Made by a program: the position numbers
In this document: positions 18,001 to 27,000 of the stretch, piece by piece
Numbering within the stretch: position 1 is the stretch's first letter
Layout of the letters: each line of letters begins with the position of its first letter
Assembly: GCA_050246315.1 (NCBI GenBank)
Contig: JBFWWG010000006.1
Coordinates: 32,001 to 96,000, forward strand
Direction of reading: 5' to 3'
DNA length: 64,000 nucleotides
Source of the DNA: Nitrospiraceae bacterium
GTDB lineage: Bacteria; Nitrospirota; Nitrospiria; Nitrospirales; Nitrospiraceae

Positions 18001-21000
18001 TCGGCAACACCAACGTGCTGAGCATGAAGGGCGCCCCCAAGATCGCGCCCAGCCCGACCGCGGTCTGTTCCGGTCCCGTTCCAAAGAAAATGGCGATGAT
18101 CGGGATCGAGGTCTCCGGCAAGGTCGTGCCGATCGCCGCAAAAATGCTGCCCACCGCGCCTTCAGAGACATTCAGCCGTTTACCGACCCACTCAATGCCG
18201 TTGGTGAACAGGTGGCAGCCGGCGAGCGTCACGATGATCGACACCAGGAACAGAAGCGTGTAGAGCAGAATGGTCACTGCGTCACTTCACCGATCATCGC
18301 GATCGTTCCTGCCGGGATCGATTCCGGGTGGAAGACCGGCCGGGCTTGCGGTGATAGATCACGATCGCCTCCTCCATAATCTCCCGCACCGGCTTGCCGG
18401 ACCGCTCGGCCAGCCGGCGGCAATCGGCATACTCCGGCACCGCTCGGATGGGCACGCCGTTTCGCGACGCCACCTTCATTCGGACCGGCCCGTACTTGGT
18501 CGAGACGCGATGAAAGGTGCGGGGCAAGACCTCGCGGGCCACCTCCCGATAGCGGACGCCCAACGCGGTGGTCTCCCGCAGCATGACGTCCGCCACTTGA
18601 CGGGTTCGATCCTTGTTGGCCAGCGCCGCCAAGACGGTGCCGGGACGCCCCCGTTTCATCACGACGGGGCTCAAGGTCACATCCAGCGCCCCGGCCGCGA
18701 AGAGCCGTTCCATCACCGTTTCGTAGATCTGAGGATTGAGGTCGTCGAGGTTCGTCTCAATTTCGAACACCGACTCGGTGTCGGCACCGGCCTCCGCCTG
18801 AACCGCCCCGAGAAACAACCGCAAGACATTCGGCCACCCATGGGGATCGGCCTCCCCTGCCCCGTACCCCACCGTCGTGGGCCACATCGGCGGCAGGGCG
18901 CGAAACTCCTCCACCAAGGTGCGGAGCACCGCCATGCCGGTCGGGGTGGTGAATTCCCTTCTCGGCCCTTCACTATAGATCGGCGCACCCTGAGCCAGGC
19001 GCGCGACCGCCGGACCCGGAACCGGCAGGGTCCCATGCGCCGACTGTTCGAAGCCGGTTCCGACGTTGACCGGAGACGCCGTAACACGTGACACACCCAA
19101 GAGGTGGCAGCCCAGCAAGGTACCCATGACATCGACGAGCGAATCGATGACCCCGACTTCGTGGAAATGCACCTGGTCGACCGGCACGCCATGCACGGCG
19201 CTCTCGGCTTCGGCAATCCTGGTGAAGACTTCCCCTCCCAATTCTTTCACGCGCGCCGGCAATCGGCTTCCTGCGATCAGACGCAGGATCTGGCGAAAGG
19301 TCAACGGGCGTTTCATCGATCGATGGATCACCACATCGACCTTGGTGGCCTGGATGACGCTGCGCATCACCTTCTTGGCCCGGATCTCATAGCCGGTGAG
19401 ATCGAGCGATGTCAGCCCCCGCCGGAGATCTCCGATCGGCACCCCCCCATCGACCAGAGCGCCCAGCATCATGTCGCCGCTGATGCCGGAGAAACAATCA
19501 AAATGCAGATGCATCGTCATCGTTGATTTGGCTTTCGTTGAGTCTGCGCACCCGCCTCACCCGCCGAGAATCGTCGCCCGATCCCGGCTCGATGTGCGCG
19601 CATCTTAACAAATGCGTCTTCAGTCGGAAATGTGGCGATCGCGGCGATCGAATCATCCAGCGGAATCCGCGCGCCCGATTGACAGCTTTCGGAGCCTGTG
19701 TTATCCGGTGACATCCCGCATCAATTCGTTTCGCTGCCCCCTGGCTCAACGGACTGGACAGGATGACAATGGCCAGCAGGCCGACGCCATGATCGATCCG
19801 ACGAACTGGAAAGCGGTGATCGGCCTCCTCTGCGTCACGGCGTGCTGTCTGCTGGGTCCGGACCAGTCCGAGGCGGCGCGGAAATCGAAAGCGGCGCCCA
19901 AGAAACAGCCGGACCTTCGAATCGTCGATGTTCGGATTAAGCCGGTGCCCTATGTCCCTTCGCACGGCGAGTTGCAATTCACGCTGGCGATCGACCTTCC
20001 TCCCGACGTCGAACGCACGGCCCTGCTGGAAGTCACCTGTTTGCTGAGTTCGCCCTCGAAGACCAGTCTCCGATTTCTCACCTACCGCCAGCCGATTACT
20101 CCCCTGCTGGAGACCATCGGCCACCAGTCGCCGCACCCCGCTCCTGCCGGAGACCATCGCGATCGCCCCCCCTCTCCCAGAGTCACCGTGACCTTGAATT
20201 GGGATGGAATGGACCACACCAGGCAGGAGGCTCAGTCTGGCCAGTACCGTTACGAACTCCGCGCCAAGATCATCGGAGATGGGGACAACACGCCCCGCAC
20301 CCTCACCGTCTCTTGGCCGAAGCGAGGGACGATGGAGGTGAGATAGTACCGCGGTCGGTGGTCACTCGTCATTCGCCAATCGTGGCCTCGTGTTGCGCCC
20401 CCCTCTCCCCTGCCCTCTGCCGGTGGAGGAGAGGCGACGCGGAGCGGACCGCTTGAGGGTCGACGAACGACGCTCTTCCCCCAGTAGATTGATCCGGTGC
20501 GCGAGGCAGCCCGCGCCGAATCCGTTATCGATGTTCATCACCCCGACCCCCGCCGCGCAGGCATTCAGCATGGTCAGAAGGGCCGCGAAGCCTCCGAGGC
20601 TGGCTCCGTAGCCGGTGCTGGTGGGCACCGCGATCACAGGGCGGTCGACCAATCCGCCGACCACGCTGGGGAGCACCCCGTCCATCCCCGCCACCACCAC
20701 CAACACCCGAGCTTGTTGCAGGCGCCGGTGCTGGCTGAGCACGCGATGGATGCCGGCCACGCCCACGTCATAAAGAGTTTCAACGCGGCTGCCCATGATC
20801 TCCGCGGTGATCCGCGCTTCCTCCGCTACGGGCACGTCGGCGGTCCCGGCCGTGAGCACAAGTATGTGGCCCTGTTGCTGACGCCGACCCGGTTGAACGG
20901 TGACGACCCGCGCCTCCGGATGGTGCCGGGCCGAGCGGTCCAGCCTTACCAAGGCCCGCGCCGTTTTCGGCGAAACTCGGGTTGCCAGCAGCAACCGATG

Positions 21001-24000: not shown

Positions 24001-27000
24001 TTCGCCGCTTGACGCGGTGCGCTTAATCCAGGGCCAACGTCAAGCACTTGGCCGAGCCGCCCGATTTGAGGAACTCATGAAGGGGCGTGGGATGGGTGAG
24101 GTAGCCCCGTTCGCGGAGTAACCGCTCCGTGGTCTCGCAGCCGGTCGGCAGGACCACGTGCTTGCCGACACAGACGGCATTGCAGGCAAACTGGAGCGCG
24201 TCGGATTCCGGCACGACCAATTGCCTGGCGGCAGGAATACGCTCCGCAATGGCGGCTTGCGCGTAGAGATCGAACGCCGGAGGATAGTACAGCAACTCCC
24301 CTCCGCTGAGCGGGCAGAAGCAGGTGTCCAAATGGTAGAAGCGGCTGTCAACAAGCTCAACCGGAATGATCTCCCGGTGGAAGACCTCGCCGAGCACCGG
24401 ATAAGCCCTGATGTCCGACCGTTGCCGATAGCCCCCGAACCAGGTATCGGGAAATCCGAGGAGATCTCCAGCGCCCTCAAAAAATAGCCCGCGCTCAAGC
24501 AACACGACTTCATAACCCTGCGCGTGGAACCAGCGCTCGAAATGAATCTCCTCTCGTTGCCGCTCAGGATGACGAAATCGGCTGACGACGGCGCGTCGTC
24601 CCTGTACGACACCGGCATTGGCCGTGAACACGAGATCGGGCAAGCCCGGCACGGGATCCAGGCGTTCGAGAATCGCGCCCGTGTCCTGCTCCAGCACTCG
24701 GACCAACCCGTTCCACTGGTCCCGCGCGCAATCGGGATGGACCTCGTTCTTACGGCGCATCCAAGGATTGATTTCGTAGTCGATCGAGAAATAATCCGGG
24801 GCGCAGACAAGAAACCGGCTCACGGCTGCCACCCCAATTCTCGCGCCAGTTCCTTTAAGAACGAGGCGGCGTCCATGACCAGCCCGACGGCCTGAAAGCT
24901 GCCGCGATCGGCCAACTTGGTCGGCACGGATGGATTGACGTCCACGCAGACGGTCGGCACCGTCGCCGGCAACAGGTTCCCGGTCGCCACGGCATGCAAG
25001 GTGGAGGCAACCAGGAGAGCCAAGGCGACATCGGGAAGGGCGGCCCGCATGGCGGCCTGCGCCTGCATGGAATCGGTGACAACCCCCGGCAGCGGCCCGT
25101 CGTCCCTGATAGTGCCGGCCATGACCATCTGCACACCTTGCCTCACGCAGGCGGCCATGATGCCGCTCGTGATCAGGCCTTGGCGCACCGCGCCTTCGAT
25201 ACTGCCAATGGCACGGATGCGGTTGATCGTGCGCAGGTGATGCTCATGTCCGTGCGGCATCGTGCGGCCAGCCGTCAACCCATAGCCACGCGAGGTGCCG
25301 AACAGCGCCGCCTCCATGTCATGGGCGGCCAGGGCGTTGCCGCAAAACAACACCTGCACGAAACCTGATTCGACCAGCCAGGTCAGCGCGTCCCTCCCAC
25401 CCGCATGGACAATGGCCGGTCCGCCGGCCAGCAGGATCTTGCTGGCTCGATGCCCCTGACGGAACGAGGTACGGAGTGCCTGCATCCGTTTGGCGATGTC
25501 CGCGATCAACGGTGTATGCGGACGCTCGGAGGACACCTGCGCTTCCATGAAGCCGAACACGTCCCGCCCTGCCGGCCGGCTCAGCGGCTGAACCCTCACG
25601 CCCGACCGGCCCACGACGACGAGCTCGCCTTTCCGGATGTCCGCCATCGGGACAATGCCGGCGCAGCGCTTGGCCGGATCGATTCGAATCGCCGTATCCA
25701 TTTCAATCGGCTCGACGGGCACCCAATGGCCGTGCAGCCGTACCTGGGTCGGAAGGTGGCTCGTCGCGTAAAACCGGTCAGGCAGGACTCCGTCCCCCGG
25801 GGCCGGCTCGACTTCACAGTCACGATCCGACTCGGGGGCGGCGCCATGCGGCTGGATGGCGGTCAGGATTTCGGCCAACAGCTCTTCCGATGGAGCCTGG
25901 ACGAGAATGCTGGCTCTGGAGGGCTGCTCCCGCGTCACGCCGATCTGGACTTCCTGCAGATCAAAGCCTCCGCCCATCATCAGGATGGTATCCAGGACCT
26001 TGGCCAGCAGCAGAGAATCGATGATGTGTCCCTGAAGGGAGACCAGTTCACTGTAGGGGAGTTGGGACATACGACACCGGGAAGAGGCCCGCTCCCATCA
26101 TAATACCACGCGGGCGGGTGGCCATCGGAGGGGCGGAGCCGTCCCTCTCGGTCGTCGCCGGCCGAACCGGCGCTACCCTCAACGCTCCTGCTCGCTCTTC
26201 ATCAGTTCTCGAAGCACATTGGTGGCGTAAGCACCGGGAGGGAGCGTAAACGAGAGGACGAGGGTTCGATCCCGACACTCCCAATCCAACCCAGCCAACG
26301 GCACCCGCAGCGCTCGCCGTTCTCCACGAAACCCACAGGCCTTGGCAGCGGCCGTCAACGCCTCCCTGGTCGTACCGAATGCGGCCACCGCGTCCTGCTC
26401 GATCTCTCCGGCTTCGCCCGTCGCCCAGGAAGCGCGCGAGCCGAAGAGCGGGCCGGTCGGGCTGATCTCAAACACATCGGCCCGTGGCTGCTCCTGGGCT
26501 GGATCTTCCACCGGAAAGCAGGCGCCGTTCACGACCTTGATGGCCCAGTCGCCCGACAGCATCCGATCGATCCGATCGATACGCGCAGCGAGAATGCGAT
26601 TGAACAGGTGCGCCTGATAGGCATGCAGGTACCAGAGCCGCTTGCTCCTCGACAACTTGTTGCGCCGAGCCTCATCGATCAATAACTCGGCGCCGAGCAA
26701 GTAGTTGTCCCCCTTGCGCCCCTGACGTTGCGGGCCGAAGTAATGCGGCACCCCGCGACGGACCAGTGCAGCCAGCACTGCCGGTACCCGTTCACCGGCG
26801 TCCGGCGACACCTGACGTATCACCAATCGAAACTCGTTCCCCGCGTGGTGACCGGTTCGCAGACGATTGCGATGGCGTCCCAGCACCTCGACGGCCAGAA
26901 TCCGGTCATCCGTGCGCAGGCGAGCCAGCGCCTCCGGCTTCACGCCTTGCAAGGAGACCATCTGAGTCGTTACGGCGTTCGCGTCTTTGAGCCCGGCTAC

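Follow-up and report, generated by a model that had tools for sequence, protein, structure and literature searches.

The ocd–DH gene pair

The window, the 64,000-nucleotide stretch of Nitrospiraceae DNA analysed here, contains two overlapping minus-strand genes. The first on the coding strand, ocd, encodes a predicted ornithine cyclodeaminase (OCD) of the archaeal/ArgZ-C type. The second encodes an ArgZ-N-like guanidino-group hydrolase, a putative arginine dihydrolase (hereafter referred to as DH). This order is the reverse of that in the ArgZ/AgrE fusion. Genes of the Lar pathway lie nearby and on another contig. The features are as follows.

24820..26070, minus strand: ocd, first gene of the pair, 416 aa, ATG start
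24023..24832, minus strand: DH, second gene of the pair, 269 aa, GTG start at 24832
24820..24832, minus strand: OCD/DH junction
26097..26124, minus strand: promoter-like site TGGCCA-16-TATGAT in the 108-nt truD–ocd gap, a weak candidate
21242-22321: gpsA, directly before larB
20362..21222, minus strand: larB, 286 aa, directly after gpsA
18294..19520, minus strand: larC, fused LarC1+LarC2 nickel insertase, 408 aa
G000:C17:53740-54516, on another contig: larE

The genome-wide survey's note had described the two genes as the two halves of cyanobacterial ArgZ/AgrE, and each protein indeed aligns over its full length to its own half. DH matches residues 6-270 of ArgZ (E 4e-75) and AgrE (E 5.5e-73). 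Among PDB sequences, OCD matches 3c2q (E 2.9e-90) and residues 285-691 of AgrE/ArgZ (E 5e-89). The assignment of OCD to the archaeal, TIGR00300 type also holds: it scores 451.8 bits on this NCBIfam model (cut-off 410.8), with residues 9-412 covering profile positions 5-404 of 407, and has the expected three-domain build (Saccharop_dh_N, 105.1 bits; ArgZ-like_C_1st, 96.6 bits; ArgZ-like_C_2nd, a Rossmann fold, 307 bits). Residues H222, H250, D251, E253, H275, H278, H359 and K385 are invariant in 31 OCD sequences.

At the junction, the TGA that terminates ocd forms a 4-nt overlap (GTGA) with a GTG start codon; use of the upstream GTG would extend the overlap to 13 nt. Counting from position 24832 gives the 13-nt overlap reported previously, but 4 nt is probably the true length, as the alternative GTG at 24823 yields 266 aa, the length of most close homologues, which is more likely to be the DH product than the 269-aa form. 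The overlapping junction implies that OCD and DH would be translationally coupled. A promoter-consensus scan returned 3 sites, compared with 0.6 expected in shuffles. RNA-library contigs from two studies span the junction at ≥99% identity; in one run they cover the whole 9.5-kb stretch, where DNA carry-over is possible. Structure prediction of an OCD–DH complex gave an ipSAE of 0.42 (best control, 0.06), a score that may reflect memory of the solved fused homologue. At least 93% of contacts agreed between runs and partner pLDDT was ≥90. Calibration of the tool had 116 of 157 solved complexes reaching the ipSAE mark, as did 2 of 215 mismatched pairs; only 18 of the 157 and both mismatches lay at or below 0.60. 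The model weakly suggests that the two proteins may form a complex.

The distribution of the pair was examined in 201 genomes of the order that are ≥90% complete (n = 200 for co-distribution tables). OCD scores above the cut-off in 152 of the 201, in line with the earlier estimate of about three quarters (0.74). Both genes are present in 155 genomes and neither in 38; OCD occurs alone once and DH alone six times. In 141 of the 142 order genomes in which both could be placed, DH is the gene immediately downstream of OCD, as it is in all 31 named Nitrospira-type loci, including that of N. moscoviensis NSP M-1. In one genus (g18), LarC and OCD are both absent from all six genomes and DH is present in four; in a relative (G048), ocd is missing from the slot between truD and DH, with larB, larC and DH remaining. 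This persistence of DH indicates that it has a role independent of OCD. Outside the Nitrospirales, OCD lies directly upstream of DH on the same strand at 18 of 49 loci, and DH stands without OCD within the available flanks at 17. Such split pairs occur in Planctomycetota, Chloroflexota, Binatia, Thermodesulfovibrionia and UBA2219, with 47-51% identity to the Nitrospira pair for OCD and 48-55% for DH; we found no characterised member among them.

Proposed route from arginine to glutamate

We consider it probable, at roughly 70%, that the coupled gene pair encodes, split and reversed, both activities of AgrE/ArgZ, within a route from arginine through ornithine and proline to glutamate. DH would convert arginine to ornithine, two NH3 and CO2 by a Cys-His-Glu mechanism with the ArgZ-type Asn. 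OCD would convert ornithine to proline and NH3 using a nickel-pincer cofactor, and a fused PutA would take proline on to glutamate. The net outcome would be one glutamate, one CO2 and three ammonia per arginine. What both enzymes do is inferred from homology, and the need for the cofactor, the way the flux runs and where the arginine comes from (outside the cell or internal turnover) are likewise inferred.

The fused PutA is encoded on contig C3, with PutA_N (113 bits), Pro_dh (292-296 bits) and Aldedh (450 bits) in one protein; on the equivalog model NF008869 it scores 609, below the cut-off of 747. PutA and OCD occur together in 153 of 200 order genomes and are both absent from 23, with OCD only in 3 and PutA only in 21. 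The presence of PutA and its co-distribution with OCD make the catabolic direction the more likely one for the pair. In addition, the genome has two copies of ProC, so that OCD is not needed for making proline. No mu-crystallin OCD was found in the genome. The survey's note had arginine serving as an ammonia source alongside urease and cyanase, both of which are present (urease alpha, 962.7 bits; cyanase, 132.6 bits). Arginine may be mined from outside the cell for its ammonia.

The strongest competing explanation, which we nevertheless regard as unlikely, is that the pair acts mainly on internal arginine, in an ornithine–ammonia cycle, as a nitrogen buffer or in proline adjustment, with no ammonia passed to partners. 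No arginine importer was identified or seen linked to the pair, no search aimed at one having been made; the operon is flanked by truD and by genes for a zinc-ribbon protein and for an outer-membrane beta-barrel protein. The retention of DH alone in G048 and g18 is what would be expected if the return of ornithine to arginine synthesis were useful in itself, and cyanobacterial AgrE has been described as supporting an ornithine–ammonia cycle on the side (PMC8262935). Against this, no cyanophycin synthetase was found in the genome that could supply stored arginine, and the co-distribution of PutA fits full catabolism to glutamate. The two explanations overlap: they invoke the same enzymes and differ in the arginine source alone.

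Proposed users of the Lar cofactor

LarB and LarC, encoded 3-6 kb from the pair, and LarE, encoded on C17, would make the OCD cofactor. All three score above their NCBIfam cut-offs, which bears out their earlier identification: LarB 286.6 bits on NF033503 (cut-off 175), LarC 193.5 on LarC1 TIGR00299 (cut-off 90) and 142.6 on LarC2 NF052512 (cut-off 50), and LarE 285.6 (cut-off 150). LarC also scores 443.1 bits on PF01969. LarA, reported earlier as missing, was likewise not found here, the LarA_N family (PF09861) having 0 matches in this genome, which is rated 100% complete. The linkage of the pair to the Lar genes is loose: gpsA and two opposite-strand genes lie between them, and in a sister family the Lar genes are more than 100 kb from OCD.

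OCD had also been proposed as the reason for keeping the whole Lar pathway. As a sole explanation this is not supported, because LarC occurs without OCD or LarA in 36 of the 200 genomes of the order. LarC is present in 191 of the 201 sampled genomes, rather than in the 0.77 of the order given previously, and in 155 of the 156 OCD-positive ones; because it is nearly universal in the order, its co-occurrence with OCD says little. A protein of the GSU2086 family is found in 30 of the 36 genomes that have LarC but lack OCD and LarA. In the genome studied here, the family member (NF052581, 437.7 bits, cut-off 250; G000:C1:491777-492688) is encoded directly after gmhA. In a phylum-wide sample (n = 151), LarC occurs in 125 genomes, GSU2086 in 119 and both in 116, with OCD in 35 and LarA in 12. 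At this scale LarC tracks GSU2086, and neither OCD nor LarA. The fold of the GSU2086 family resembles that of deoxyhypusine synthase, which works with NAD, and the family has an H-D-x-E motif region in common with the cofactor domain of OCD.

These distributions also bear on whether OCD uses the cofactor at all. If the Nitrospira OCD were Lar-independent, working with NAD+ or with no nickel cofactor, the GSU2086-family protein would be the sole client of LarB, LarC and LarE. The 36 genomes with LarC but neither OCD nor LarA, 30 of them with GSU2086, the phylum-wide pattern and the loss of ocd from G048 with larB and larC retained are all in keeping with that. We judge it improbable, however. 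OCD passes the equivalog model TIGR00300, which NCBI names 'ornithine cyclodeaminase, nickel-pincer nucleotide-dependent', and a nickel-pincer adenine dinucleotide has been reported in OCDs (Desguin 2025, cited as ref. 22 in passages of PMC13524815). Moreover, OCD is present in 25 of the 31 LarC-positive genomes that lack GSU2086, and g18, which has no LarC, likewise has no OCD yet keeps DH.

The OCD of the proposed arginine route probably shares the Lar pathway with another client, the GSU2086-family protein encoded beside gmhA. The fuller proposal, that these are two non-LarA clients and that the latter is an undescribed nickel-pincer enzyme, perhaps an isomerase or epimerase, acting in the synthesis of heptose (lipopolysaccharide), is a tentative one to which we give slightly less than an even chance. 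If true, it would link the nickel demand of Nitrospira to envelope synthesis as well as to arginine catabolism.

The guanidino hydrolase and comparison with known systems

The annotation of DH is less direct than that of OCD. Its score on the arginine dihydrolase model NF052232 (293.1 bits) is under the cut-off of 450. It is also below all dimethylargininase cut-offs: NF045659 (Mycobacterium tuberculosis-type), 234.3 against 300; NF045660, 66 against 340; and NF045658, 21.5 against 450. In Pfam it is placed only in DDAH_eukar (33 bits). In public sources its close homologues are mostly named dimethylarginine dimethylaminohydrolase or dimethylargininase, or arginine deiminase-related, and arginine dihydrolase once only. 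However, P0142, a 710-aa fused representative with 45% identity to DH, passes the bifunctional ArgZ model (1152.7 bits, cut-off 1025) and also fails the NF052232 domain model (425.7), so that this cut-off discriminates poorly.

Among solved relatives, ArgZ and AgrE are far nearer to DH than any DDAH (E about 4e-75 against only 5e-5). By alignment, the ArgZ catalytic residues (Cys, His and Glu, with the ArgZ Asn) are kept in DH: N72, E119, H167 and C263 lie within motifs identical to those of ArgZ, where we take the corresponding residues to be N71, E118, H168 and C264. N72, E119, D169 and C263 are invariant among 40 diverse representatives, in which the catalytic set as a whole is invariant or nearly so. 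PDB 6juz differs from 6jv0 in having S in place of the Asn of the DH motif FTANAG. Elsewhere the DH family is fused to OCD domains and also to ornithine aminotransferase, suggesting that DH yields ornithine. A quick tree groups the Nitrospirales DH sequences in a clade of their own (SH-aLRT 99), without placing it relative to the cyanobacterial clade. That DH is instead a DDAH, a citrulline-stopping arginine deiminase-like protein or another guanidino-modifying enzyme, paired with OCD for another substrate, would suit its sub-threshold scores, its Pfam placement and the names of its homologues, but is very improbable given the failure of P0142 on the same model, the nearness to ArgZ/AgrE, the conserved ArgZ-specific Asn and catalytic residues, and the adjacency and fusions that tie the family to ornithine-using enzymes.

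The two predicted enzymes can be compared with known systems. The M. tuberculosis-type dimethylargininase (NF045659) resembles DH in superfamily and length; DH differs in falling under its cut-off and scoring better on the arginine dihydrolase model. The gene of that type in M. tuberculosis adjoins ornithine aminotransferase genes. The archaeal stand-alone OCD (TIGR00300; Methanococcus maripaludis, PDB 3c2q) shares with the Nitrospira OCD the family cut-off and the three-domain build. It was reported with the nickel-pincer adenine dinucleotide, whose use is predicted here; larB, larC and larE are in the genome. The archaeal enzyme is taken to be a proline maker, and a table in PMC13759103 has GapMind listing it as a proline-synthesis step; the Nitrospira OCD is instead coupled to an arginine hydrolase, in a genome with PutA and ProC.

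The closest counterparts are the bifunctional AgrE (Alr4995, Anabaena; PDB 6lrf) and ArgZ (Sll1336, Synechocystis; PDB 6juy), in which DH corresponds to residues 6-270 and OCD to 285-691, with the same catalytic motifs in DH. In Anabaena, a PutA step lies downstream of AgrE (PMC8262935), and PutA is likewise present in the Nitrospira genome. AgrE/ArgZ combines the dihydrolase, at the N-terminus, and the OCD, at the C-terminus, in a single polypeptide, whereas Nitrospira has two polypeptides in reverse gene order, and neither DH (294.4 bits) nor OCD (358.8 bits) reaches the bifunctional model NF052231 (at least 1025 bits). The predicted enzymes are of known kinds; what differs is the split, coupled and reversed layout of the putative ArgZ/AgrE activities in nitrite-oxidising Nitrospira.

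Gene order and enzyme identity at the OCD–DH locus

The locus pairs a gene for a TIGR00300-type ornithine cyclodeaminase (OCD) with one for an ArgZ-N-like guanidino hydrolase, a putative arginine dihydrolase (DH), close to two genes of nickel-pincer cofactor synthesis.

Genes of the locus, in window coordinates
18294-19520, minus strand, larC
19612-20346, plus strand, open reading frame between larB and larC, with a lipoprotein-like signal sequence from an internal Met
20362-21222, minus strand, larB
21242-22321, minus strand, gpsA, NAD(P)H glycerol-3-phosphate dehydrogenase
22592-23335, plus strand, outer-membrane beta-barrel protein, between gpsA and DH
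23560-23919, plus strand, zinc-ribbon protein, between gpsA and DH
24023-24832, minus strand, DH, 269-residue guanidino-hydrolase homologue
24820-26070, minus strand, OCD, 416-residue ornithine cyclodeaminase
26179-27339, minus strand, truD

These positions bear out those in the genome-wide survey's note, with larC, larB, gpsA, DH, OCD and truD all on the minus strand. The open reading frame between larB and larC has no Pfam or NCBIfam match and lies on the opposite strand; larB and larC are thus not one transcript. The survey had also described a 13-nucleotide overlap between OCD and DH. The genes do overlap, but the extent is probably 4 nucleotides, because a second GTG start of DH overlaps the OCD stop codon as GTGA and close DH homologues are mostly 266 residues long. 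The cyanobacterial bifunctional ArgZ/AgrE fusion has the dihydrolase first and the OCD second, whereas on the coding strand here OCD comes first and DH second. Directly upstream of larB lies gpsA, with a gap of 19 nucleotides in the window and an overlap of 4 nucleotides in genome G048 (L131:1982-3936), an adjacency kept in two genera. Terminator-like sites at the locus are at chance level (3 seen versus 2.6 expected).

OCD and DH are enzymes of known kinds, and the survey's family assignment of both genes is sound. OCD scores 451.8 bits on NCBIfam model TIGR00300 (cut-off 410.8), a model to which NCBI gives the name 'ornithine cyclodeaminase, nickel-pincer nucleotide-dependent'. It has all three expected Pfam domains and matches the Methanococcus maripaludis structure 3c2q (E 2.9e-90), as well as residues 285-691 of both AgrE and ArgZ. 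DH falls under the NCBIfam cut-offs both for the arginine dihydrolase domain (293 bits, cut-off 450) and for the Mycobacterium tuberculosis-type dimethylargininase (234 bits, cut-off 300). These scores do not discriminate, because P0142, a true fused representative of 710 residues with 1152.7 bits on the bifunctional model (cut-off 1025), itself reaches only 425.7 bits on the arginine dihydrolase domain model. The alignment of DH to ArgZ residues 6-270 (E 4e-75) and to AgrE spans its whole length; the E value against solved DDAHs is 5e-5. DH shares the motifs FTAN72AG, FE119GAGD, YH167LD and AKC263LT with ArgZ, and the asparagine in the first of them is the residue replaced by serine in PDB entry 6juz relative to 6jv0. 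All of 40 representatives with 39-51% identity to DH share N72, E119, D169 and C263, and no fewer than 90% of them retain H167. The ArgZ counterparts are presumably N71, E118, H168 and C264.

Conservation of the pair

We surveyed 201 genomes of the order, all at least 90% complete, and found OCD over its cut-off in 152 and DH in 162. After removal of one genome with a partial OCD match (G160), the two genes co-occurred in 155 of 200 genomes and were both missing from 38; OCD stood alone in 1 and DH in 6. In 141 of the 142 genomes with coordinates for both, DH directly follows OCD on the same strand; in the remaining one the pair is split over two contigs. Searching named genomes with the alignment of DH sequences yielded 80 loci, which were then examined for OCD by tblastn. 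OCD is directly upstream of DH in all 31 Nitrospira-type loci, those of N. moscoviensis NSP M-1 and an N. defluvii metagenome-assembled genome (MAG) included. The pairing is ancient, and its conservation across the order is strong.

The split order is not peculiar to Nitrospira and is found in other phyla too. Among the 49 non-Nitrospira loci, 18 have OCD upstream (Planctomycetota, a Chloroflexi MAG, Binatia, Thermodesulfovibrionia and UBA2219) and 14, from cyanobacteria and one Verrucomicrobiae MAG, have it after DH, which is the order of the fusion; in the remaining 17, tblastn found no OCD within the flanks examined. In a quick tree of 59 DH rows, with those of Nitrospirales thinned from 31 to 10, the Nitrospirales sequences group together (SH-aLRT 99), as do the fused forms in a clade of their own (91); the deep branching order has a support of 8 only.

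The architectures in which DH is fused to other domains point to ornithine as its probable product, as in P0171, where DH is joined to an ornithine aminotransferase fragment. Five further representatives (P0125, P0129, P0130, P0140 and P0143) carry the small N-terminal domain of OCD ahead of DH. In genus g18 a stand-alone DH (L129:3151-6510; G003:C10:36500-46000) is flanked by genes for an MFS transporter and a DUF2252 protein, the latter gene overlapping the end of DH; neither neighbour encodes an ornithine-using enzyme.

RNA-seq libraries of four studies yield assembled contigs over the locus, two of which (X1 record 6 and X6 record 22) span the OCD/DH junction with an identity of at least 99%. 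Such contigs do not give expression rank, strand or single transcripts, and uncovered stretches carry no meaning; as one run covers the entire 9.5 kb, DNA carry-over is possible. A predicted OCD–DH complex reached a median ipSAE of 0.42 versus 0.06 for the best control, with at least 93% of contacts shared between runs and partner pLDDT of at least 90. In calibration, 116 of the 157 solved complexes reached the mark, as did 2 of the 215 mismatched pairs; 18 of those 157 and both mismatched pairs lay at 0.60 or below. The prediction weakly supports binding between OCD and DH, and its score may reflect only their likeness to the solved fused homologue (6juy, 6lrf).

Candidate clients of the nickel-pincer cofactor

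LarB, LarC and LarE all pass their cut-offs in the genome and LarA_N has no match there, as the survey had reported. It had proposed that OCD explains why the Lar pathway is kept. A link between the two is plausible: LarC is present in 155 of 156 OCD-positive genomes, and a nickel-pincer adenine dinucleotide OCD is attributed to Desguin 2025 in PMC13524815. Of the 201 order genomes, 191 carry LarC; LarA was found in 14, each of which also has OCD. Genus g18 has LarC, OCD and GSU2086, a second candidate family treated below, in none of six genomes and keeps DH in four, a pattern that fits a Lar-requiring OCD. However, OCD is not the only reason for retention of the pathway, because 36 of 200 order genomes carry LarC but lack both OCD and LarA, and because G048, of the same family as the genome under study, has lost OCD. 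There, truD is followed directly by DH, with OCD missing from its usual slot (L131:5332-7246; G048:C1:1903000-1914500), while gpsA, larB, larC and the GSU2086 gene remain. Genomes that lack LarA commonly carry the nickel-pincer cofactor genes; PMC11796402 gives larBCE without larA in about 15% of surveyed genomes, many cyanobacteria among them.

The GSU2086 family is a good but unproven candidate for a second client. The genome has one member outside the window (G000:C1:491777-492688, minus strand; L028:5754-6761; 437.7 bits, cut-off 250, NF052581), directly after gmhA as in Geobacter. A Tn-seq table lists GSU2086 as a hypothetical protein of a sugar biosynthesis operon; the best match to the heptose epimerase HldD in the genome reaches 140 bits (equivalog cut-off 274.6). 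The family is present in 163 of 201 order genomes and in 30 of the 36 'orphan' LarC genomes, and OCD is present in 25 of the 31 LarC-positive genomes without GSU2086. The six genomes with LarC and none of OCD, LarA or GSU2086 all belong to genus g17 (G049, G063, G091, G129, G149 and G171), where LarC could serve a further client, the genes could have been missed, or the pathway could be in the course of loss.

A phylum sample of 151 Nitrospirota genomes contains LarC in 125, GSU2086 in 119, OCD in 35 and LarA over its cut-off in 12. The distribution of GSU2086 tracks that of LarC: the two occur together in 116; GSU2086 alone is found in 3, LarC alone in 9 and neither in 23, the last being three whole families (0/6, 0/7 and 0/10 for both genes). 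OCD is present in seven of the nine LarC-only genomes; it occurs in families f1, f2 and f5 only, with none in the 111 genomes of the other families. Together, OCD and GSU2086 as two candidate clients best account for the distribution of the Lar genes.

The GSU2086 model (pLDDT 88.8) has a fold like that of NAD-dependent deoxyhypusine synthase (Foldseek E 6e-9, TM 0.53-0.61); deoxyhypusine synthases are among the Foldseek matches shown, and the OCD structure 3c2q is absent from them. In a profile-profile comparison OCD and GSU2086 match moderately (probability 65%, E 5.9e-5, 122 columns), in an alignment that pairs the invariant H-D-x-E of both families; BLASTP between the two is not significant (E 0.77). 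GSU2086 is the more novel lead compared with the OCD–DH pair, and the accessible literature holds no description of it as a nickel enzyme.

Arginine as a possible nitrogen source

Urease and cyanase are both present in the genome, as the survey had stated. Cyanophycin synthetase was not found there, its model giving Mur-ligase-level matches only (133 bits, cut-off 850). Because the genome has two ProC copies and no match to a mu-crystallin-type OCD, proline synthesis does not need the TIGR00300 OCD. One ProC copy (G000:C3:261513-262298) lies about 7 kb from a gene for a fused PutA (C3:269015-272428). This PutA has 1137 residues and the domains PutA_N, Pro_dh and Aldedh, and it scores 609 on the PutA equivalog model, under the cut-off of 747. 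Across the order, in related genomes that are not independent, PutA and OCD are both present in 153 and both absent from 23, with OCD without PutA in 3 and PutA without OCD in 21. The catabolic reading of the OCD–DH pair gains from PutA.

If the route works as inferred, it would yield three ammonia and one glutamate per arginine for canonical nitrite oxidisers. Arginine would then join urea and cyanate as an organic nitrogen source for Nitrospira or its ammonia-oxidiser partners, and part of Nitrospira organic-nitrogen metabolism would be nickel-dependent. Literature listings, with most subscription journals and supplements outside the search, gave nothing relevant that joins Nitrospira with ornithine cyclodeaminase, arginine dihydrolase or proline dehydrogenase. 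The idea is directly testable, because the operon is present in cultured N. moscoviensis (L047). In Anabaena, AgrE and PutA convert arginine to proline, freeing CO2 and three ammonium, and then proline to glutamate (PMC8262935); with a fused PutA in the genome, the genes of this full route are, as judged by homology, present here as well.
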